Assembly: GCA_016702505.1 (NCBI GenBank)
Contig: JADJDU010000003.1
Coordinates: 256,265 to 320,264, forward strand
Direction: 5' to 3'
DNA from: Microthrixaceae bacterium
GTDB lineage: Bacteria; Actinomycetota; Acidimicrobiia; Acidimicrobiales; Iamiaceae
DNA: 64,000 nt
Shown here in pieces: positions 13,565 to 23,732 of this stretch (position 1 is its first letter; each line of letters opens with the position of its first letter). The notes beneath the pieces are model-generated. The model did no database searches, had not been told where the DNA came from, and saw only the letters and a program-made list of their open reading frames with translations. A program made the position numbers and the translations under genes.

Positions 13565-13640
13565 GGGCCACTAGCTCAATTGGCAGAGCATCGGACTTTT
13601 AATCCGCCGGTTCAGGGTTCGAGTCCCTGGTGGCCCACCA
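13565..13640 (+). tRNA. tRNA-Lys (anticodon UUU), with CCA encoded
   Basis: GGGCCACTAGCTCAATTGGCAGAGCATCGGACTTTTAATCCGCCGGTTCAGGGTTCGAGTCCCTGGTGGCCCACCA. Cloverleaf folds with a 7-bp acceptor stem, anticodon loop CTTTTAA and T-loop GGTTCGAGTCC. Close to canonical bacterial tRNA-Lys. Confidence 0.85.
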
Positions 13641-13645
13641 ACTCG

Positions 13646-13669
13646 AATCCCCTGCTCACGTAGGGGATT
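13646..13669 (+). terminator. perfect 8-bp stem-loop immediately 3' of tRNA-Lys (AATCCCCT-gctcacgt-AGGGGATT); tRNA terminator or att-associated inverted repeat
   Basis: Inverted repeat read directly from the sequence. No U-tract follows, so the function is uncertain. Confidence 0.3.
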
Positions 13670-13870
13670 TGGCCGTTCAGAGGCTCCTTCGCGGGAGGTG
13701 CATCAGGCCCACTTACGCGGTTCGCGACCGCGATGCACCCTCTGATGCACCTTCCGATGCACCGTTTGGCGGCGTACCCTGTTGTCCGGTGGTCGATGGC
13801 CTCCACCTCGTCATGGCCGTCCCAAACGTTGTTGCAGCGCCGCGGAGCGCTGGACGAAGGGACGAAGGCC

Positions 13871-15325
13871 ATGGCGAGATCGTTGGCGGAACGGTTCGAG
13901 GAGAAGGTCGATCGGACTGGTGAGCACCACCTGTGGCTCGGAGCCACGAACCCCGATCGGGGCACCGGGCGACTGAAGGTCGCTGGACGCAACATGACGG
14001 CGCACCGGGTTGCTTGGGAGATCGAGCACGGCGAGGCGCCGCCAGGCACCAAGGTGCTCCCGTGCCGGGTCGAGCCGAGGTGCGTCCGACCGGATCATCT
14101 GACTGTCGAGCACACCACCAGTGGTGCAGTGCAGCGGTCAGCTCGAGGTGGTGGCTCCAAGCGTGAGGTCGGCCCGGGCACCTGGGAGCTGGCAGCGTCT
14201 GCGGGCATCGGTTCGGATGGCAAGCCCAAGCGGGTGTTTCGCCGCGTGACCGGGACCAAGCAGGAAGCGGCCCGAGCCCTTGCCGCGCTCGTAGCCGAGG
14301 TCGGCGACGGCCGAGATGTTCCGGACCGCTCCCAGAAGGGCGTCACGGTGAAGCAGCTGCTCGACGGCTACCTCGATCACCTGCGCGATCACAAGGGTCG
14401 ACGTCACTCGACGCTGGTCCGCTACGGAGGTCTCGCCGAGCGTTGGATCGCCCCGCATCTGGGCAGCCGTGTCGCTGATCGAGTGCTTCCTGATGACGTC
14501 GAGCGGGCGCTCGGGGTCATGCGGGCTGCCGGGCAGAGCCAGAGCTCGATCCACCAGACGTTCACGTTGCTCAACGGCACGTTCAAGTGGGCTCGGCGCA
14601 ATCGGGTGATCAGCCGCAACCCGATGATCGAAGCCGAGGAGCCGAGGAGCACCGCGATTCGCCGCGAGGTCATCCCGCCCGACATCGAGTCGCTCCTGCG
14701 GCTGCTCGCCGCCGCGAAGGACGTCGATGCCGAGTTCGGGCTCCTCGCCCACCTCGGCGCGGTGACGGGTATGCGTCGTGGTGAGCTTGCCGGGCTCCGC
14801 TGGCGCGCTGTCGATCTCGAGGCCGAACGCATCGAGGTCGCGACGACGGTCAACGACGCTGGCGGCACCGTCGTGATCACCGACACCACCAAGACCGGCA
14901 AGCCCCGCCTGGTGGGCATCGACGCCCACACCGTCGGGATGCTCCGCTCGCACCGCCGCGGCATGGAGGAGCGCGCGGCGGCGTGCGGGACCGTGCTTGT
15001 CGAGGACGCGTTCGTCGCCAGCAGGTCACCCGACGGCTCCCTGCCGGTGCGCCCCGAACAGCTGTCCCGCAAGATGCTCCGGCTCCGCCGGCGGCTCGGC
15101 ATGGACGCCGCCAACTTCGACGCCACGATGCACGCCCTGCGGCACTGGGCCCAGACGACGCTCACCGAAGCCGGGTTCGATTCGCGTCAGATCGCGGATC
15201 GGGGCGGCCACACCGAGGCCCTGATGAAGTCGGTCTACATCCACCGCACCGACGAGTCCGAGCAGAGGATGACCTCCCATCTCGGGTCGCTGCTGGCAAC
15301 CCCGCCGAGCACTCCCGAGGGGTGA
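13871..15325 (+). CDS. int: tyrosine-type site-specific integrase with an N-terminal HNH_3/AP2-like DNA-binding domain
   Basis: C-terminal catalytic domain with ...HALRHWAQTTL... and ...SVYIHRTDESEQ (R-H-R-Y family). N-terminus HHLWLGATNPDRGTGRLKVAGRNMTAHRVAWEIEHGEAPPGTKVLPCRVEPRCVRPDHL fits an HNH_3/AP2-type arm-binding domain. RBS GAAGG before ATG 13871. Confidence 0.85.
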   Translation: MARSLAERFEEKVDRTGEHHLWLGATNPDRGTGRLKVAGRNMTAHRVAWEIEHGEAPPGTKVLPCRVEPRCVRPDHLTVEHTTSGAVQRSARGGGSKREVGPGTWELAASAGIGSDGKPKRVFRRVTGTKQEAARALAALVAEVGDGRDVPDRSQKGVTVKQLLDGYLDHLRDHKGRRHSTLVRYGGLAERWIAPHLGSRVADRVLPDDVERALGVMRAAGQSQSSIHQTFTLLNGTFKWARRNRVISRNPMIEAEEPRSTAIRREVIPPDIESLLRLLAAAKDVDAEFGLLAHLGAVTGMRRGELAGLRWRAVDLEAERIEVATTVNDAGGTVVITDTTKTGKPRLVGIDAHTVGMLRSHRRGMEERAAACGTVLVEDAFVASRSPDGSLPVRPEQLSRKMLRLRRRLGMDAANFDATMHALRHWAQTTLTEAGFDSRQIADRGGHTEALMKSVYIHRTDESEQRMTSHLGSLLATPPSTPEG

Positions 15326-15450
15326 ACAGGCGGGGCGTGTCGCAGATCGGGGACAAGGAATCGCGGTGAGTTCGCGATTTCTGCGCGGTTTTCGAGGCCT
15401 AGAGAGGCCTACGTAGGTAACGGGATCATCGCGCCCGTTCGGAGGTCACC

Positions 15451-15912
15451 ATGGCAGCCGAGCAGCTCACCCTCCTGGACCTCGCACCCGAGGTCACCGG
15501 ACCGAGGTCGGCGCGTCCGCGGGCGCGCCGAGCCGGACCCGCCAAGCCTGCGATCGCTGCGCGTTCGGACGCCAGGTCGGCCGAGCCGGTGGCGGGAGAG
15601 GTAGTGATCGAGCACCGCTACCCGCAGGCGCTCGAGTTCCTGCGCGAGCACGGGCCCGACGCGGTGGCGGTGCTGCACGTCCTTGTCGCCCAGGCCGACT
15701 CGGTCGACGGGCGGCTGGAGGTCGCGGCGAGCACCCGGGGTATGGCCGAGCGGCTCGGGTTCCTGTCCAAGGACAGCGCGCATCGGCGGCTGCGCCAGCT
15801 CAGCCGAGCCGGCGTCCTCGAAGCCCTGCCTTCGACGGGACCAATGGACCCACCTGCCTACGTGGTTCACCTCGACGGCACCGGCATCACCGTCACCCAT
15901 CCCTCCCGCTGA
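15451..15912 (+). CDS. winged-helix DNA-binding protein (putative relaxosome accessory/regulatory protein)
   Basis: GGAGG RBS 6 nt before the ATG. C-terminal ...AERLGFLSKDSAHRRLRQLSRAGVLEAL is wHTH-like. Confidence 0.55.
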   Translation: MAAEQLTLLDLAPEVTGPRSARPRARRAGPAKPAIAARSDARSAEPVAGEVVIEHRYPQALEFLREHGPDAVAVLHVLVAQADSVDGRLEVAASTRGMAERLGFLSKDSAHRRLRQLSRAGVLEALPSTGPMDPPAYVVHLDGTGITVTHPSR

Positions 15913-15970
15913 AGGAGCTACCCGTGACCGAACCGACTCGAGCGCAAGCGTCGCAGCGATCGACAGACGA

Positions 15971-18900
15971 GTGCACGAGCTCGTGCGGGGGTCGGTCGTG
16001 ACCGCCAGAGTGACCACGCTCAAGGGCCCCGATGCCGGCGCCTACTACGTCGACGGCCCCGGCCGGTACTACCTCGACGGCGACGAGCCGCCCGGCCGGT
16101 GGTTCGGCCGCGGCGCCACTGCGCTCGGCCTCGCGGGGGAGGTGGATGACGATGACTTCCTGTCCCTGATGGATGGCCGGGACCCGGCCAGCGGCGAGCT
16201 GCTGGGCACAAGGCATCACGAGCGAACAGTGCGCGGGTTCGACGTCACCTGCTCGGCCCCGAAGTCGGTGTCGGTCCTGTTCGCTATCGGAGACGACCGC
16301 GTCCGCAAGGAGGTCCTCGAGGCGCATGACGCTGCGGTCGCTGCGGCGTTCGGGTGGATCGAGGATCACGCCCACTGCCGGTATCGGGTCGATGGCGAGG
16401 TGTGGACCGTCGATGCCCGGGGCCTGGTCGCTGCCGCGTTCCGCCAGCACACCAGCCGGGCACATGATCCGCAGCTCCACACCCACCTGGTGATCCTGAA
16501 TCGGGTGATGGCCCCCGACGGCCGGTGGCTGGCGCTCGATGCGCGGACCCTGAAGCACGACCAGCGCACCATCTCCGCGCTCTACGCCGCGGGGCTGCGC
16601 TCGGAGCTGACCACCCGGCTCGGCGTCCGGTGGAACGAGGTCGTGAACGGTCAGGCCGAGATGGTTGAAGCCCCCGACGAGGTCCTCGACGCCTTCTCCC
16701 AGCGCACCCGCCAGATGGCCCGCCGCCTCGATGAGAAGACAGAGCGCTTCGTCGACAACCTGGGCCGACGACCCACGCCACGGGAGCGGTGGCGCATCGA
16801 ACGCGAAGCCGCCATCGACAGCCGACCCTCCAAGACCAGCGAGGACGCCCAGAGCCTCCACGAGCAATGGGCCGAGCAGCTCGACGCACTCGGCTACAAT
16901 TCATCCAGCTACCTGGAGCGGGTCGCCGGCCGCACCCGCGCGATCGAGGCCGACGCCACTACCGATCGGGACGCGGTCGTCGACGCGTTGTCCTCGCTAC
17001 GAGACACCCAGTCGGTGTGGCGCCCCGCCGAGATCACCCGCGAGATCGCCGCCGCACTGCCCACCCGCCTCGGCGGCACCGCCACCGAGACCGTCGACAG
17101 AGCGCAGCGGCTGGCGTCGCACGTCGAGGACGAGCTGACCGTCGACATCTCCCGACCCGTGCCCGGCAACATCCCGCTCCGCCAGGACGGGCGACCGGTC
17201 ACCGAAGGAGCCCTCGACCGCATCCTCACCACGAAGGCGATCCTCGACGAGGAGGGGCACATTCTCGACCTCACCCGCCGCTGGACGGCCGAAGGCGGCA
17301 GCGATGCGCAGGACCTGGACCCCGACGGCGAGCTGACCGCCGTGCAGAACCACGCAGCGGGCGCCGTCGCAGGAGAGCGACGCCTCGTGCTGGTCGTGGG
17401 ACCGGCTGGCACCGGCAAGACCACCGCCATGCGCCCCGCCGTTGCCCGACTTCACGCCGAGGGGCGACCGTGCTTCGGTGTCGCACCCTCGGCCGCGGCA
17501 GCGGAGGTGCTGGCGGTGGACACCGGGATGGATGCCGACACGCTCGACAAGCTCCTCATCGAGCACCGCCTCGAACGGCCGCCGCGCCATCGCTACGACC
17601 TCCCCGCCGGGACGACCGTCGTGGTCGATGAAGCCGCGATGGTGCCCACGCCACGCCTGGCCGAGCTGATCAACCTCGCTGAGCGACGTGGGTGGCGGCT
17701 CGCCCTGGTCGGTGACCCGATGCAGTTCGCCGCCGTCGGCCGCTCGGGCATGTTCGGCCACCTCGTCGACACCATCGGCGCCGTCGAGCTCGACCGGGTC
17801 CATCGCTTCGACGCGTCCTGGGAACGAGACGCCAGCCTCCGGCTCCGCCGAGGCGACACGGACGTCGTCGCCCTCTACAACAACCACGACCGGTTCCACG
17901 GCGGCACCGCCCGCCAGATGGCCACCGCCACCGTCATCGCATGGCGACGCGCCATCGAGGCCGGGGAGACCGCGGCGATGATGGCCCCGACCCGCGAAGC
18001 CGTCGCTGTCCTCAACGAGATCGCGCAACAGATCCGGATCGCCGCCGAAGAGGTCGAGCCGAAGAGCCCGTCGGTGAAGCTCGGCCCGACCCGGGCGCAT
18101 GTCGGCGACCTGGTCGCCACCCGACGCAACGACCGCACGCTGCTCACCGACCGAGGACGGATGGTCAAGAACCGCGACCACTGGACCATCCAAGCCGTCC
18201 ACGCTGACCGGTCGGTCACGGTCGCCGGGGCGACCGGACGCGTCACCCTGCCCGTCGACTACGTCGCTGGGGATGTCGAGCTGGCGTACGCCGAGACCAG
18301 CCACGCCACCCAAGGACGCACCGTCGACCGCTCCTTCCTCTACCTCGACGGCCCCGCCGACACCCGAGGCATCTACGTCCCACTCACCCGAGGCCGCACC
18401 GCCAACAAGGCCTTCGTCGTCCTGCGCGATGAGCGCACCGCCGCCGAGGTCATCGCAGAATGCGTCGCTCGAACTTGGATCGACCAACCCGCCACAGCAC
18501 TCCGCCGCGACCACGCCTCCGAGCCGTCGGATACGGGTAGGGGAAGAGGCCGCGGTGTGGCGGCCGCCCCCGCTGCCAGGCCTCGCCTGCCTCTACCAGC
18601 CGACGAGCTGCTGGACCTGGTACAACGCACCATCTGCCAACAGGCCGCCGCCGACAAGCACCAGGCCGTGCTCAAGGCCCACAAACAGAACCTCTCGAAC
18701 CTCGCCAGCTGGGCCCGTGAGGCCAACCGGGAGTACCGCAGCACCGTAAGGCGCCTGGCGGAAGCCAAGCGGATGCTCGCCGAGCACGACCGGCCGCTAC
18801 ACCGACGCCAACACCGGGCCGCGATCCGCCAAGCAAAGCAAGATGTAGCCGACCTACCCGGCAGACTCGACGCCCTGAACCAGGAACGCACCGACCTCGT

Positions 18901-19315
18901 GTCGAGACACGCCGCCGAGAAGAAGGCGCAACACCGAACGAACATCGCTGCGAAGGCCAGGCCCGAGAACTTCGCCGTCGACAGGACCGACGCCGCCATC
19001 GCCGACGACGCCCGCACCCGAGGCGAACGGATTGCAGCCGGCCCCGACCCGGTATACCTCGATCACCTCGGCCCCGTCCCCGACGCCCCGGAGGCGCGAG
19101 AACACTGGATCGACGCCGCCGGCAGAGTCGCCCAACACCACACCCTCTGGGGCCAGCCCACCGGGCCGACCTTCGTCGGCCACATGCCCACGTTCAACAA
19201 CGACGAGGACTATCGCCAAACCTTCTACGCCGCCAACCAAGCCATCCACGACCTCGACCGTACCGCCGGCATCCCCCATCGAGCCCAACAGTGCCCGGGC
19301 CTGGCGCTCTTATAA
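15971..19315 (+). CDS. MobF-family conjugative relaxase (TrwC/TraA-like) with C-terminal RecD-like helicase domain
   Basis: N-terminal relaxase motifs as in TrwC: YY..GxxYY, CSAPKSVSVLFA, HTSRAHDPQLHTHLVILN (3-His motif). Central Walker A VVGPAGTGKTT. Start is a GTG at 15971, 15998 or 16010, downstream of GAAGGAG. Confidence 0.85.
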   Translation: MHELVRGSVVTARVTTLKGPDAGAYYVDGPGRYYLDGDEPPGRWFGRGATALGLAGEVDDDDFLSLMDGRDPASGELLGTRHHERTVRGFDVTCSAPKSVSVLFAIGDDRVRKEVLEAHDAAVAAAFGWIEDHAHCRYRVDGEVWTVDARGLVAAAFRQHTSRAHDPQLHTHLVILNRVMAPDGRWLALDARTLKHDQRTISALYAAGLRSELTTRLGVRWNEVVNGQAEMVEAPDEVLDAFSQRTRQMARRLDEKTERFVDNLGRRPTPRERWRIEREAAIDSRPSKTSEDAQSLHEQWAEQLDALGYNSSSYLERVAGRTRAIEADATTDRDAVVDALSSLRDTQSVWRPAEITREIAAALPTRLGGTATETVDRAQRLASHVEDELTVDISRPVPGNIPLRQDGRPVTEGALDRILTTKAILDEEGHILDLTRRWTAEGGSDAQDLDPDGELTAVQNHAAGAVAGERRLVLVVGPAGTGKTTAMRPAVARLHAEGRPCFGVAPSAAAAEVLAVDTGMDADTLDKLLIEHRLERPPRHRYDLPAGTTVVVDEAAMVPTPRLAELINLAERRGWRLALVGDPMQFAAVGRSGMFGHLVDTIGAVELDRVHRFDASWERDASLRLRRGDTDVVALYNNHDRFHGGTARQMATATVIAWRRAIEAGETAAMMAPTREAVAVLNEIAQQIRIAAEEVEPKSPSVKLGPTRAHVGDLVATRRNDRTLLTDRGRMVKNRDHWTIQAVHADRSVTVAGATGRVTLPVDYVAGDVELAYAETSHATQGRTVDRSFLYLDGPADTRGIYVPLTRGRTANKAFVVLRDERTAAEVIAECVARTWIDQPATALRRDHASEPSDTGRGRGRGVAAAPAARPRLPLPADELLDLVQRTICQQAAADKHQAVLKAHKQNLSNLASWAREANREYRSTVRRLAEAKRMLAEHDRPLHRRQHRAAIRQAKQDVADLPGRLDALNQERTDLVSRHAAEKKAQHRTNIAAKARPENFAVDRTDAAIADDARTRGERIAAGPDPVYLDHLGPVPDAPEAREHWIDAAGRVAQHHTLWGQPTGPTFVGHMPTFNNDEDYRQTFYAANQAIHDLDRTAGIPHRAQQCPGLALL

Positions 19316-19681
19316 GCGGACCAGGTCGCTCAACCGGTCGACAGCCGGCTCCCGCATAGCCGGCGCTCTCCACCGCAAGAAGTGGGCCAGACTTTAGCAG
19401 CGCCCGAGACCATCATCGTTAGAAGCAGCCAAGCCACCCGCCCTGCGACGGAACACTTGCCCCCGAATGGGGCCAAAGGTCAAGCCTAGATCAGGCAACA
19501 CCGTCGATCTGATAATTGCCCCGCAAAAGATTTGACCGGCGCCGCAATCTGCGGCCGGCCGCCATGCTATGCGCCACACGCCGCCAACACGCCGGAATCG
19601 CTAGGAACCCGTCTCTGCCCTAGTTCCGCAACCTAAGAGCCGAGGACCGTGTCGCCGCCGACCTTCAGGAAGCGTGGAGCG

Positions 19682-20611
19682 TCATAAGAGATCGAAGTAG
19701 CCTCGGACCGAATGGTGGTCCGACATGCCCAGAATCGTAATTGTAGCGTTCCCCGCCGAGGCGGTATTGGGCCTCACAGCGTATATGTAATCAATCCCAG
19801 TGCCGCCGTCCGTTGTCGAGCGTTTCGGACTGGTTAGGTCAGCTTCTCGAAAGTCGGTCTGATACGAGCCTGGTAGACTAGCTCGGCCGCGATTTAGATC
19901 GCCCATTCCGAAGCGATACGTAGCAGTAGAAAAGATTGTGTAGTTATAGAAATCCGCCTCCTCTGTGGACCAGCCTCCGAAATGCGTGGAACATGAGTGG
20001 AAGGCGTTGAGGAACGCAGTCGTGTCTATGCAGACAATATTGGGCCAATGGTACGAGTCAGTACCCGCTGAATACGCTGCGCTTCCCTGACGAGCGGCGA
20101 GGGAGGAGGCGAACGTGAACCGACTCAAGACCTGGTTACCGTACTCCACGCGAGAAGAATTACCATCGAGTCGACAGTTTCCAGCTGCCGCGTTCCACGG
20201 GCGATGAAACTTCCACTCGTACCTTTGAGAGTAGCTTCCGTTCAAGTAATAAGCTAGAGAGAACGCCTGCGACAGGCAAAGCTCATTGAGAGAGATCGAT
20301 ATAAATTGCTCCGACACTGCGCGGGATCGAATGTACTCAATTTGGTCCAATCGCCGCGAATCGCTGCTATTCCCAATCAAGCCCTGCACGTTCCAGTGAA
20401 AGAACGCCGATTCAGTAGCCGCCCTTGACTGAGATGCGCCTGGCTGAGCCGCCTGCTCAACTGACGTTCCGGCACCATCCAGCCCCCGCTGCATTAAGGA
20501 CTCTGCATGCGCTGCTCGCGACGCTATTGGACCCAGCATTGTGACGACTGCAGCACAAGCAAGCGCCCCTCTCATAGCCGCTCTCACTCTAGAGGCCACC
20601 GAGGCCGGCAT
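19682..20611 (-). CDS. secreted endonuclease/exonuclease/phosphatase (EEP) family protein (nuclease or sphingomyelinase/phosphatase-like)
   Basis: Signal peptide (...AAVVTMLGPIASRAAHA). EEP motifs FHWNVQG (N-terminal WNV), catalytic-type Glu region ISLNELC and C-terminal GMSDHHSV (SDHxPV-like). Lower-GC gene. Confidence 0.65.
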   Translation of the reverse strand: MPASVASRVRAAMRGALACAAVVTMLGPIASRAAHAESLMQRGLDGAGTSVEQAAQPGASQSRAATESAFFHWNVQGLIGNSSDSRRLDQIEYIRSRAVSEQFISISLNELCLSQAFSLAYYLNGSYSQRYEWKFHRPWNAAAGNCRLDGNSSRVEYGNQVLSRFTFASSLAARQGSAAYSAGTDSYHWPNIVCIDTTAFLNAFHSCSTHFGGWSTEEADFYNYTIFSTATYRFGMGDLNRGRASLPGSYQTDFREADLTSPKRSTTDGGTGIDYIYAVRPNTASAGNATITILGMSDHHSVRGYFDLL

Positions 20612-21768
20612 CAGTTCCCACCAATCTCTATCAAATCGCGGTTGAGGCCGCCATCCAGGCCGAGCCGGAGGAGTACAGACTCAGAGACGGGAACCATTAC
20701 AGATACCTTCTGTGAAAGACCGGCGAGCTCTCTTGTAGTCCCACGGTCGGGATCAAACTCAAGCAAATTAGAACCATACGGAAGTGGCGTAGCAATGACT
20801 GAGTCGACGGTTGGCCAACTAAATGGTTGGAGGGCTCCGAATCCAGGGGCCAGCGATACTTCTGTCCAGACCCCTGACGAGATGTCAAGCACTGCGCCTC
20901 GAGTCGGAGACTCGGGTGGCCCCCATGGAATAATGACAACGTGGCTTTTCGTGCAATTTACCTTCAATCCCGTACCCGCGCCTGTCAAGATTTTGGGCGA
21001 GTTGCGGATGTCCGCCCATCTGCCATCTACGTCCAACACGGAAAGCTGAGTTGCGAGCTCCTCAGAACCTTTCGTATCAAACGGAAGCATCGCCGCTTCT
21101 CCAGAGGATGCGATCAAACGATCGCCCGACTGGCACAAAGAACCGCTTGTCTGCTCTATGGGAGTCCAACCATCAACAACTCTCTGAGCGTACTGTATTC
21201 CGGGACTTCCGTTTGAATTAGCATATCCCATTACAAGCCTACCGTAAGACGAGTTCAAACTAACATATCGGCCGACCATGGACATGTCTGCTAAGCCTGG
21301 CTCCGGTAGATCTAGGGCCCGTTCCTTGCCAGTAGTAAGATCGTATTCAAACAGACGGTACCCTCCGGGCTCACAGATAAACTGCCCTACGTCGTCGTAT
21401 TGGAACTCACCTACGCACGGAATACCAGCCAAGAAGAGCGATCGCCCGATTGCAGTCGCAACCGGCTCGGCTAAAGGTGTGCTCAGACTCAAGTTGTCCA
21501 CCACTTCCCCGTCTGAATTGAGTCGCACTCCAGAGCGCGTCGCAATGACGCCACCACCGGTGCGTTCGTGCCCAACAACAATTACCGCACCGCCATCGGC
21601 GAGAGGAACAGTGAGTGGATCCACTGTGCCTTCGGTGACCTTAATAAGATAGTCCCGTTCCGGGAGCTGATCACCGCCACTCGATTGACGGCTCGGCTCA
21701 ATCTGCTCCTGATCGCCACAAGATACGGTCCCCACAACCAGAACGCCCGCAGCGATAATCCGGTACAT
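20611..21768 (-). CDS. hypothetical secreted protein/lipoprotein (cargo gene, lower GC)
   Basis: N-terminal hydrophobic signal ending ...VVGTVSCGD (lipobox-like). No recognisable domain. Its stop overlaps the start of the EEP gene. Confidence 0.5.
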   Translation of the reverse strand: MYRIIAAGVLVVGTVSCGDQEQIEPSRQSSGGDQLPERDYLIKVTEGTVDPLTVPLADGGAVIVVGHERTGGGVIATRSGVRLNSDGEVVDNLSLSTPLAEPVATAIGRSLFLAGIPCVGEFQYDDVGQFICEPGGYRLFEYDLTTGKERALDLPEPGLADMSMVGRYVSLNSSYGRLVMGYANSNGSPGIQYAQRVVDGWTPIEQTSGSLCQSGDRLIASSGEAAMLPFDTKGSEELATQLSVLDVDGRWADIRNSPKILTGAGTGLKVNCTKSHVVIIPWGPPESPTRGAVLDISSGVWTEVSLAPGFGALQPFSWPTVDSVIATPLPYGSNLLEFDPDRGTTRELAGLSQKVSVMVPVSESVLLRLGLDGGLNRDLIEIGGN

Positions 21769-22372
21769 GGATCTGACGACCATTTCTTGAGTCCATTCAG
21801 TGCGAAGACGACCGGCACCGAGCACGATATCAGGCGCTGGCCTGCGCAGGCGGGTAGCTCCAGTCTCGACACATACCCGCTCTTCGGATCTGAGGGAGAA
21901 GTGATCGGCGGGTAGGGGTATCGGCTAGACCCCATCTGAAGGCCGACGTCGCTCAGAGCATCGGCATAGCCGAAGTACTGGCCAAGCGAGCCCTTGATCC
22001 TCTGGTCGACGTCGGCGTCGGTGCCGAGCCGCGCGGCATGACGTGCGCGTCGTTGGTGAGCCGCTGGTCTCGGTGGCGCAGCTCGACCGAGTAGCCCATG
22101 CAGCCCAGGGCCGGAGCGGACCACGTCATTCCGCGTCTTCTGGAGCAGCAGCCATACGGACCGGCTTCTCGGTCACAGGCACCCTGCTTCGGCCGCTCCT
22201 AACCCTTATATGGGGAGCGCCACCAGCCGCGCTCGTCTCGGGCAACCCTCCACCGCGTATCTCACCGCGTAGCTCGGTGGACCGGGGTGCGTCCAGAGGT
22301 ACAGAACAGACGGACTGCTTCAAGGGAACGGCAGGTCAGGGTACAGATCGGTACGCAATGGCACGCTGTTCG

Positions 22373-22424
22373 TCGGGCTTTTAATCCGCCGGTTCAGGGT
22401 TCGAGTCCCTGGTGGCCCACCAAC
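22373..22424 (+). repeat. attR: 52-nt direct repeat of the tRNA-Lys 3' half (TCGGGCTTTTAATCCGCCGGTTCAGGGTTCGAGTCCCTGGTGGCCCACCAAC)
   Basis: Identical to tRNA positions ~13594..13643 except for one base (G for A at the anticodon-stem position). Confidence 0.8.
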
Positions 22425-22807
22425 CGAGGTCGAAGCCAGGCCGCAAACTCGGCCTCACCCCAGATCCCGGATGCCACCGCGACCACCGCTTGCTCCGCGT
22501 CATCGATCGACGGCGAATCGACCCAGGTCCACTCGTTCAGCATGACGAAGTACCGCATGGCGACCCAGGCCACCCGCTTGTTTCCGTCTGGCAGGGGATG
22601 GTTCTTGGCCAGCCGGACCATCAGCACCGAGGCCTTGTCCACGAAATCCGGGTAGAGGTCTGATTGCCCGAACCCCGCCGCTGGAGCGTGCAGCGCCGAA
22701 TCTGCGAGATCCAGGTTCGCGACTCTCAGGACGGTGGTCCCGTCGAGCCCGGTGACCTCCTCGGCGATCGCGACGTAGTCGGTGAGGTCGAGGTATCTGA
22801 CGGTCAC
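22394..22807 (-). CDS. doc: type II toxin, Doc/Fic family (death-on-curing); annotated C-terminus runs into the att repeat
   Basis: Fic/Doc motif HPLPDGNKRVAWVAMRYF (HPFxDGNKR). ~126-aa core. Confidence 0.7.
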   Translation of the reverse strand: MTVRYLDLTDYVAIAEEVTGLDGTTVLRVANLDLADSALHAPAAGFGQSDLYPDFVDKASVLMVRLAKNHPLPDGNKRVAWVAMRYFVMLNEWTWVDSPSIDDAEQAVVAVASGIWGEAEFAAWLRPRLVGHQGLEP

Positions 22808-23013
22808 CTGGCCAGACGTTCGAGAAGTTGCCGGTCCTCCTCGACGATCTGACTGATCCGTGCCTTGAACTTTGGGTCCCGCCGCCTGCGCTCGACTGTC
22901 TCCCCGAGTGCTTCCTTCACCAGTTCGTTGACGCTCTTGCCCTCGACACGAGCCAGCGCCTCGGCGTCCGCGGCGAGGTCGTCAGGCAACCGAACGGTCA
23001 TGTTCCTAGTCAT
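22804..23013 (-). CDS. ribbon-helix-helix (CopG/Phd-like) antitoxin
   Basis: 69 aa: MTRNMTVRLPDDLAADAEALARVEGKSVNELVKEAL... is RHH. Overlaps the doc start by 4 nt. Confidence 0.7.
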   Translation of the reverse strand: MTRNMTVRLPDDLAADAEALARVEGKSVNELVKEALGETVERRRRDPKFKARISQIVEEDRQLLERLAR

Positions 23014-23302
23014 GGTGTCATGCTACTACGCCACCAACCTAGAACGAGGGGGCTTCATGGGCAGGACCAACGTTGAGGTGGCTCGAACAAGAGGTCGGGG
23101 CCCCGTGAACCCGGCCGCTACTTGCCGGTTCAATCGTTCTACCCACCTCGAGTAGTCCGCTGTCGGATTGCCCGAACGCCACCGCGTATCTCACCGCGCA
23201 ACTCCTTGGCACGAGGTGGGTCCAGGAGGGACGGAACGGGAGGAGCGGTCCAAGAGAACGGCACGTCATAGGACGAATCAGCACGGGACGACACGCTGTT
23301 CG

Positions 23303-23354
23303 TCGGGCTTTTAATCCGCTGGTTCAGGGTTCGAGTCCCTGGTGGCCCACCAAC
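23303..23354 (+). repeat. second direct copy of the tRNA-Lys 3' half (one mismatch, CCGCT vs CCGCC); remnant att site of an older tandem element
   Basis: TCGGGCTTTTAATCCGCTGGTTCAGGGTTCGAGTCCCTGGTGGCCCACCAAC. The ~130 nt to its left are also partly similar to the ~130 nt left of attR. Confidence 0.75.
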
Positions 23355-23373
23355 GAAGAGCTGGCGGAACGGG

Positions 23374-23619
23374 TCAGTGCTCCTCGTGATTCGACACCCA
23401 GGTGACCCCCGCCACCATCGTGCCGAACCCGACGCCACCCCAGAACCCGACGAAAAGTCCGAGACCTACAGCCGAACCCACCTCGGCACCGGCCGCGACC
23501 ATGCCAGCCGTGGTGGCTATGAACGACAGGACGATGCCGATGGCCGCGCCCAACGCGACAGCCCGTCCCATCCCCGGGGTCTCCTGCCACTGGTCACCTG
23601 CAACACCATGATCGGTCAT
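23374..23619 (-). CDS. small hypothetical membrane protein (2 TM)
   Basis: 81-aa ORF, hydrophobic Gly/Ala-rich. Weak support only. Confidence 0.35.
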   Translation of the reverse strand: MTDHGVAGDQWQETPGMGRAVALGAAIGIVLSFIATTAGMVAAGAEVGSAVGLGLFVGFWGGVGFGTMVAGVTWVSNHEEH

Positions 23620-23732
23620 ACTTCTGGTATCTACCAGATATAAAGGCGCTGGTCACCCTCGCACTCGGGACCCCTCCACCTCAGACCCTCGCCCATTACC
23701 CGCAGACCCACACCTGACCTTCAGGAATCGCC

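Follow-up and report, generated by a model that had tools for sequence, protein, structure and literature searches.

The window analyzed here (64,000 nucleotides of contig JADJDU010000003.1, from the Microthrixaceae bacterium assembly GCA_016702505.1) contains a tRNA-Lys gene whose 3' part is repeated twice downstream, the three copies serving as attachment (att) cores. We consider it likely that the segment 13643-23354 (9.7 kb), which extends from the end of the tRNA copy to the end of the outermost one, is a composite of an integrative mobilizable element (IME) and of a 0.93-kb cis-mobilizable element (CIME) that has only a toxin-antitoxin pair left, the two being joined at an internal att site. 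The comparative data point to mobilization of this small cassette in cis with the adjacent intact element: empty and full alleles occur in two hosts, the identity between the hosts reaches 99.96% and runs to 23354, and the outer core carries the single nucleotide polymorphisms (SNPs) expected of a recombined site.

The only tRNA of the window is an intact tRNA-Lys(UUU) at 13565-13640 on the forward strand (Rfam tRNA, 68.8 bits). Two further copies of its 3' 52 nt (13591-13642), co-linear and in the same orientation, are found at 22373-22424 (1 mismatch to the tRNA) and 23303-23354 (2 mismatches to the tRNA); shuffles give an expectation of 0 for such matches. A preliminary description of this DNA had credited the copy at 23303..23354 with one mismatch, which is true relative to the middle copy. 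The three copies vary at two positions and no others: 13595/22377/23307 is A/G/G and 13608/22390/23320 is C/C/T. Neither downstream copy is part of a functional tRNA or tRNA-like RNA, in agreement with the preliminary description as regards the copy at 23303-23354: ARAGORN makes no call there, and the Rfam RF00005 scores are 23.1 and 24.3 bits versus a gathering score of 29. In both, the sequence on the 5' side is a P arm, without alignment to the 5' half of the tRNA. The features on which the argument turns are as follows.

13565..13640, + strand: tRNA-Lys(UUU) (ARAGORN, Rfam); its 3' part serves as the left attachment site
13591..13642, + strand: attL core, first 52-nt copy, in the state (A13595, C13608)
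22250..22372, + strand: inner P arm of the 8.8-kb island, with ACCGCGTAnCTC twice in tandem and GAACGGCAGGTCA as its conserved blocks
22373..22424, + strand: inner att core, second copy, in the state (G,C), attP-like and unrecombined; (G,T) in a few contigs
22394..22807, - strand: predicted Doc/Fic-family toxin, 137 aa (Pfam Fic PF02661, 44.4 bits versus a cut-off of 24)
22804..23013, - strand: predicted ribbon-helix-helix (RHH, CopG-like) antitoxin, 69 aa (Pfam RHH_1, 26.5 bits versus a cut-off of 20.5)
23014..23178, - strand: spacer upstream of the toxin-antitoxin operon, presumed from its position to hold the promoter/operator
23179..23302, + strand: outer P arm, of a second family lineage, with the family blocks kept and 85% identity to the orthologous arm of contig L043
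23303..23354, + strand: outer att core in the recombinant state (G,T), the putative functional attR of the composite

All of the comparative evidence comes from metagenome assemblies and metagenome-assembled genomes (MAGs). The contigs of the same species (host A), which were obtained by exact-protein look-ups and are 98-99.9% identical to the window in nucleotide sequence, are found in two states. Seven of them (L022, L023, L030, L031, L033, L034, L035) are empty sites, in which 13642 is fused straight to 23355; in the occupied ones the whole of 13643-23354 is present wherever the contig reaches. Contig look-ups based on Doc, RHH, integrase, MarR (left flank) and HTH_20 (right flank) found, among the longest 10 places listed for each, neither a toxin-antitoxin-only allele (tRNA followed by CGAGGTCGAAGCC) nor an IME that ends at the host flank, although short contigs may hide such a state. 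The same composite is also present in a second host (host B): contig L004 matches window positions 14140-23354 at 99.957% and L010 matches 22252-23354 at 99.909%. In host B the identity to the window ends exactly at 23354; from 23374 on the identity drops to 67-71%, but the order of the genes is unchanged (an 81-aa membrane protein, then an ArsR-type regulator with 75% protein identity). Contig L060, from a third sample, has the same host-B junction, as judged from its gene neighbourhood without realignment. The empty host-B allele is represented by L051, the only match for the exact host-B regulator sequence, which is 99.8% identical to the flanks of L004 and L010 and in which the tRNA is directly followed by TCGTATGGCC; across the empty sites the tRNA is joined to GAAGAGCT or TCGTATGG. 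Since the host-B identity runs to 23354 and includes the cassette, the stretch recently brought into two chromosomes ends at 23354, not at 22424, and it is 23354 that should be annotated as the island boundary. As the comparison of these alleles shows, the 8.8-kb island and the cassette are acquired, lost and exchanged between hosts together.

The two variable core positions, given here as a pair, provide a signature of strand exchange. At the empty site (attB), all 7 host-A alleles and the one from host B read (A,T); in all occupied contigs attL is (A,C) and the outer core is (G,T), while the inner core is (G,C) in most and (G,T) in a few. This is the pattern predicted for a recombination in which attB(A,T) and attP(G,C) yield attL(A,C) and attR(G,T). 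Because the outer core carries the recombinant (G,T) state, the outer copy, and not the middle one, is the junction formed on integration. The SNPs map the strand exchange to the interval from tRNA nt 31 to nt 44, which comprises the anticodon loop together with the 3' side of its stem; a sublocation in the anticodon loop and stem is said to be common for tRNA-targeting tyrosine integrases, as Williams reportedly noted in 2002.

The similarity between the inner and outer sites extends well beyond the cores. Regions 22250-22424 and 23179-23354 are ~82% identical over 176 nt, core included; without the core (22250-22372 versus 23179-23302) the arms agree in 93 of their 123 positions (75.6%), a single 1-nt gap being needed, and share both their start, CCACCGCGTATCTCACCGCG, and their finish, ACGCTGTTCG followed by TCGGGC. 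The alignment score is 61, whereas 123-mers taken at random from the window score −10.6 ± 5.7 and dinucleotide-shuffled sequences −5.9 ± 5.2 (z ~12.6-12.8). Chance or composition is thus ruled out as the source of the similarity (z ~12.6), and the extended arm similarity that the preliminary description had claimed, with the same starting and ending sequences, holds far above the chance level. Across the family (L039, L040, L043, L050) the region left of attR keeps a tandem ACCGCGTAnCTC x2 and also GAACGGCAGGTCA, both of which are present in the two arms of the window; ACCGCGTAnCTCACCGCG is a block of the P arm. When only the arms are considered, the inner one is 75% identical to the outer one and 79% identical to the arm of L039, L043 or L050, and the outer one is 85% identical to the outer arm of L043. 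In view of the 75% identity between the two arms and of these matches of 79% and 85% elsewhere in the family, a recent duplication can be discarded; the two arms represent two lineages of one element family.

Between the inner and outer cores the only ORFs (open reading frames) with family support are Doc/Fic and RHH, and here the Pfam matches bear out the preliminary description, in which just an RHH antitoxin and a Doc/Fic toxin had been placed between the copies. The RHH gene lies upstream of Doc with a 4-nt overlap (22804-22807), and the pair is kept in L042, L043 and L044. The Doc motif HPLPDGNKR departs from the signature HxFx(D/N)(A/G)NKR only by a Leu for Phe, and is near-invariant in 20 aligned homologues, the exception being P0002 (the L043 copy) with HSLPDGNKR. 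With the model of the P1 Doc subfamily (TIGR01550) the protein scores 28.7 bits, below the cut-off of 38.65; the nearest solved structure is 9vzc, a 'Death-on-curing family protein'. Ratios of non-synonymous to synonymous substitution rates (dN/dS) versus L042 and L043 are 0.19-0.27 for Doc and 0.10-0.19 for RHH, as calculated from small counts (7-13 synonymous versus 3-11 non-synonymous differences); both genes thus appear to be under purifying selection.

The 3' end of the toxin gene is peculiar. Conservation among 19 Doc homologues reaches as far as ...AAWLRPR, beyond which each has a variable tail (7-11 residues) and a stop of its own. In the window the conserved part stops exactly at the core boundary, and the last 9 residues (LVGHQGLEP) plus the stop are encoded by the reverse strand of the inner att core; the corresponding tail of L043, LVGHPGLEP, follows a base difference in the core of L043 itself. 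A more distant pair, in L044, has 80% nucleotide identity and lies in a non-att chromosomal setting, with homology ending at 22424. To the right of the inner core there is no equivalent of the P' arm (the conserved region to the right of attL), its place being occupied by the 3' end of Doc. Altogether, the 0.93-kb unit consists of a family-type P arm and core without integrase, relaxase or P' arm, an anatomy which suggests a decayed relative of the adjacent island. As regards expression of the pair, a scan of 22200-23700 for sigma-70 promoters and intrinsic terminators found none, which is uninformative for a high-GC actinobacterium. The motif GTCATG occurs three times around the RHH start (22990-23020, GTCATGttcctaGTCATGgtGTCATG) and may be an operator for RHH autoregulation; a TAGCAT placed 6 nt upstream of the RHH ATG would suit a leaderless transcript.

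Relatives of the integrase, with 73-93% identity, all adjoin tRNA-Lys genes (UUU or CUU) in Acidimicrobiales, Iamiaceae, Aquihabitans and Actinomycetota MAGs, in keeping with an origin of the window from Acidimicrobiia. One of them, L039, is a complete family member with one attR and without the toxin-antitoxin pair. The association of pair and element can be seen in L043, an Aquihabitans MAG contig (GCA_039921895.1), whose array opens with tRNA-Lys, after which come the P' arm and the integrase gene from its 5' end to codon ~126 (aligned to 14110; 84%), and continues, after a deletion to window position 22362 (~10 nt left of the core), with the inner core, Doc, RHH, the P arm and the outer core (88% over 995 nt). 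As this pairing is 84-88% identical to that of the window, the association predates a nucleotide divergence of 12-16% and is much older than its arrival in the genome of the window. In L043 the IME has decayed while the toxin-antitoxin pair remained intact. In L042 a mutated core is accompanied by the toxin-antitoxin pair at 92% identity, and the outer P arm is reduced to its first ~25 nt.

The preliminary description had concluded that one element family was repeatedly captured at this hotspot. This is contradicted by the lack of a cassette-only state among the alleles described above, by the en-bloc presence at 99.96% in host B, by the role of the outer core as the junction, and by the Aquihabitans copy at 84-88%. 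From the presence or absence of the block as a whole, its transfer and the older Aquihabitans copy it follows instead that accretion happened elsewhere and earlier, and that the pair now acts as one element.

Some further observations concern the family at large. L036 (9820-9892) and L040 (9674-9748) are members located in tRNA-Lys(CUU), with integrases 87% and 73% identical to that of the window, and the attR core of L040 agrees with the tRNA gene of that contig; evidently the family has changed from one lysine isoacceptor gene to the other, with the P-arm blocks kept. The inner core of L043 (3321-3371) has a hybrid T-stem, in which the 5' CAGGG is as in the window and the 3' CCCGG as in the host tRNA, so that the halves would not pair; this may record a recombination or conversion inside the core. 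L049 and L050 (JGI Ga0123332 and Ga0123333) have a P arm and core followed directly by P'-type sequence, an attP-like internal junction, and then by a 68-aa ORF and the conserved right-end gene; the P arm of L050 has an ISL3-type transposase next to it. These two contigs were considered as circles of the present element and rejected, because their P-core-P' junctions lie within another decayed tandem array of the same family, in a different host.

These results can be weighed against other histories of the locus. According to one of them, a toxin-antitoxin island at this very tRNA-Lys shrank to its addiction module, and a related island was captured later. The position of the remnant, distal to the tRNA with the intact element proximal, and the related but distinct arms agree with the three-step model that is the standard one (PMC5704250), and L043 shows that such decay does occur in the family. 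However, the same-species contigs include only empty sites and the full composite, the cassette is 99.9% identical in a host with ~70% flanks, with the identity ending at 23354, the host-derived T sits in the outer and not in the inner core, and Aquihabitans has this pairing too, at 84-88%; we regard this history as very improbable. It is on this point that the preliminary description, which had seen in the cassette a decayed older island keeping only its addiction module, needs to be divided: the anatomy is indeed that of a decayed family member, whereas decay in place is at odds with the allelic states and with the 99.9% identity in the second host. A different possibility is that there is a single element, with the toxin-antitoxin pair as ordinary cargo and the inner P arm and core as a duplicated right end. 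The block does act as one in every comparison, and the co-linear repeat units share one orientation; yet the arms are only 75% identical, when the remainder of the composite is >99.9% conserved between hosts, the inner arm resembles the arms of independent members (79%) at least as much as it does the outer arm (75%), the closest relative of the outer arm is the orthologous L043 arm (85%), and the complete relative L039 has one attR and no such pair. This small set of arm comparisons already points to a pairing of each arm with arms of different single elements. A single element is thus quite unlikely.

The exactness of the junction between Doc and core lends itself to yet another explanation, in which RHH-Doc was once the chromosomal B' flank of a tRNA-Lys, became trapped between family elements or sites, and was carried off via the outer site. 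Doc enters the core as a convergent chromosomal gene might, and the present hosts do have a convergent gene whose stop (23374-23376) is 19 nt past the core; close homologues of the pair (80% nucleotide identity) are found in non-att chromosomal settings with homology ending at 22424 (L044), and accretion-driven gene capture is documented in work cited by PMC5704250. On the other hand, an extra event is needed to put a complete P arm and core to the right of RHH, none of the genomes found has tRNA-Lys directly followed by this pair without the P arm, and the Doc homologues carry tails of 7-11 aa and stops of their own rather than a tRNA-encoded tail. We give a capture of this kind little credence.

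We come back, then, to the composite of an IME and a toxin-antitoxin-only CIME. Two of the features that define a CIME are present: related att cores at both ends, the outer one with a full family P arm, and no integration or transfer genes. The P arm of distinct lineage and the truncated Doc tail would fit an origin of the CIME by deletion; no full-length progenitor with this pair was found. In a family member bearing the toxin-antitoxin pair, all of the sequence from the tRNA end up to the last functional part of Doc would have been deleted, and with it the tail and stop of Doc itself, both of which would now be supplied by the att core. A site-specific deletion between attL and a pseudo-core was considered as the source of the exact Doc-core junction and judged unlikely: throughout its T-arm part the inner core agrees perfectly with the tRNA, and a pseudo-site would not provide such a sequence. 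An intact IME would then have integrated beside the remnant in some earlier host. Its integrase is predicted to recombine attL with the outer attR, so that both parts would excise and re-integrate together, and the resulting circle would have in the outer P arm, the core and the IME P' arm a complete attP; the cassette alone could not rebuild attP, because it lacks a P' arm. The TrwC relaxase would mobilize the composite via the mating apparatus of a helper, and the toxin-antitoxin pair probably stabilizes the composite by post-segregational killing, outliving the IME when the array decays.

Several points weigh against this reconstruction. The SNP argument assumes a T-type attB in the occupied strains before insertion, an assumption with which every observed empty site agrees. 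In L001, L002, L003, L013, L014, L028 and L029 the inner core has a T at 22390, as the outer core does; gene conversion between the direct repeats or an independent mutation may be responsible. The left end of the composite in host B is unseen, L004 stopping inside the integrase gene at 14140. A pattern scan of JGI metagenomes for an excised circle or attP junction (a G-type core followed by TCGAATCCCC) found none, only L049 and L050 being matched. Finally, the origin of the cassette by deletion is one that we infer, and the deletion endpoint at the exact core boundary is explained by argument alone, namely that the tRNA and a functional Doc are the limits which selection allows.

A stronger version of the same idea would make the internal att site a working switch, in which outer excision takes the addiction module along and inner excision leaves behind the toxin-antitoxin pair and an att landing pad. 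Both the C/T variation at the inner core and the survival of the cassette in the decayed arrays L042 and L043 are compatible with such a switch without demonstrating it, and we consider it unlikely; if it were true, the landing pad would favor re-capture, and the cassette would be a selected modular stabilization unit exchanged within the family.

The remaining features of the island are listed below.

13643..13800, + strand: P' arm, with the hairpin CCCCTGCTCACGTAGGGG, GGTGCATCAGG and three direct GATGCACC repeats, continuing into the integrase leader
13868..15325, + strand: predicted tyrosine integrase; the longest ORF runs from 13733, the likely start is the M at 13868
15451..15912, + strand: predicted helix-turn-helix protein, 153 aa, a family core gene (weak LexA_DNA_bind match; 52-93% identity in L036-L039)
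15983..19315, + strand: predicted TrwC/MobF-type relaxase-helicase, 1110 aa (Pfam TrwC 273 bits, AAA_30 170 bits; gene calls on the contigs are also 1110 aa)
19682..21825, - strand: low-GC cargo, two genes that encode a 309-aa protein of the EEP family and a protein of 390-404 aa without family match

The integrase, flanked by att repeats at tRNA-Lys, and the TrwC relaxase identify 13643-22424 as a putative IME; no coupling protein and no mating-pore or type IV secretion system (T4SS) families were detected among the ORFs of 13643-23354. The integrase matches Pfam Phage_integrase with 56.5 bits, and its SAM-like N domain, at 20.8 bits, is slightly below the cut-off of 22.3. The N-terminal ~130 residues of the longer ORF (13733-14130) have a weak HNH_3 match (19 bits, under the cut-off); this fragment is exactly the part that survives in L043, and L004 also ends nearby, at 14140. 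The P' arm is conserved in L036-L040 and L043, as seen by alignment. The hairpin CCCCTGCTCACGTAGGGG is perfect and lies immediately 3' of the tRNA; CCCCTGCTCACGTAGGGG, GGTGCATCAGG and the GATGCACC repeats are candidate arm-type integrase binding sites, as are the inverted, imperfect relatives of the P'-arm motif GGTGCATCAGG that are found in both P arms (GGTGCGTCCAGAGG and GGTGGGTCCAGGAGG).

The cargo stands out by its GC content, 53-57% (19400-21900) versus 65-72% in the surrounding element and chromosome. Its 309-aa protein, of the endonuclease/exonuclease/phosphatase family (EEP), has a signal-like N-terminus. Cargo alleles vary: one population variant (L011/L026) carries proteins of 211 and 385 aa, L039 differs too, and in the MAG contig L003/L058 most of the cargo region is without called genes. 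On the reverse strand, 21936-22124 is a remnant of a gene kept at the right ends of the family, with the motif LGTDADVDQxIKGSLGxYFGYAD; it matches intact ORFs of 166-185 aa in L049 and L050, with 82-83% nucleotide identity over 21936-22294, and appears to be truncated at the start of the low-GC cargo.

With respect to what the locus teaches, a tandem att array beside a tRNA need not record the insertion history of the genome in which it is found, and an addiction module can persist as a minimal passenger of a mobile element. The process, accretion and cis-mobilization, is already known, and no new mechanism is opened here; the locus offers a natural example of accretion followed by cis-mobilization in uncultured Acidimicrobiia from environmental metagenomes, with alleles in two divergent hosts and a strand exchange located by SNPs.

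Among known systems, Phd-Doc of phage P1 is a type II toxin-antitoxin in which Doc is a Fic-fold kinase acting on EF-Tu. The pair described here is similar to it in the Fic/Doc fold match, in the NKR motif (HPLPDGNKR) and in the small overlapping antitoxin gene upstream, but has an RHH/CopG antitoxin instead of Phd/YefM, a Leu for Phe in the motif, and a score below the cut-off for TIGR01550 DOC_P1. The mosAT pair of SXT is a toxin-antitoxin module that stabilizes the integrated element. A comparable type II pair on an integrative element, expected to penalize its loss, is sgiAT of Salmonella genomic island 1, cited in PMC5704250. Both sgiAT and mosAT sit inside the element proper, whereas here the pair occupies an att-bounded compartment of its own and its stabilizing role is predicted.

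As for the architecture, the three-step model of CIME-IME accretion and the en-bloc transfer of tandems are both described in PMC5704250 (section 2.3), where the acquisition of a whole pre-formed composite 'cannot be excluded'; judging from its alleles, the present locus would be a clear natural case of such an acquisition. The tandems of CIMEs with ICESt1/ICESt3, which are integrative and conjugative elements (ICEs) of Streptococcus thermophilus, and the pathogenicity islands of Streptomyces (PMC5704250) resemble it in that an att-bounded remnant without recombination and transfer genes lies beside an intact relative at the 3' end of a target gene, with an internal att site, and in that the tandem moves via its outermost sites. 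Unlike in the ICESt1/ICESt3-CIME tandems, the partner here is a relaxase-only IME and not a self-transmissible ICE, the hosts are uncultured Acidimicrobiia, the remnant has shrunk to one toxin-antitoxin operon whose toxin gene is fused at its 3' end into the att core, and the evidence is population-genomic (alleles in two hosts) rather than experimental. The IME_Sag2603_tRNAlys composite island of Streptococcus agalactiae (PMC5704250) likewise consists of related elements integrated in tandem at the 3' end of tRNA-Lys and contains a chimeric att site between them, but differs in the arrangement, in the integrase family and in its partner, which is a slightly decayed ICE and not a remnant consisting of a toxin-antitoxin pair only.

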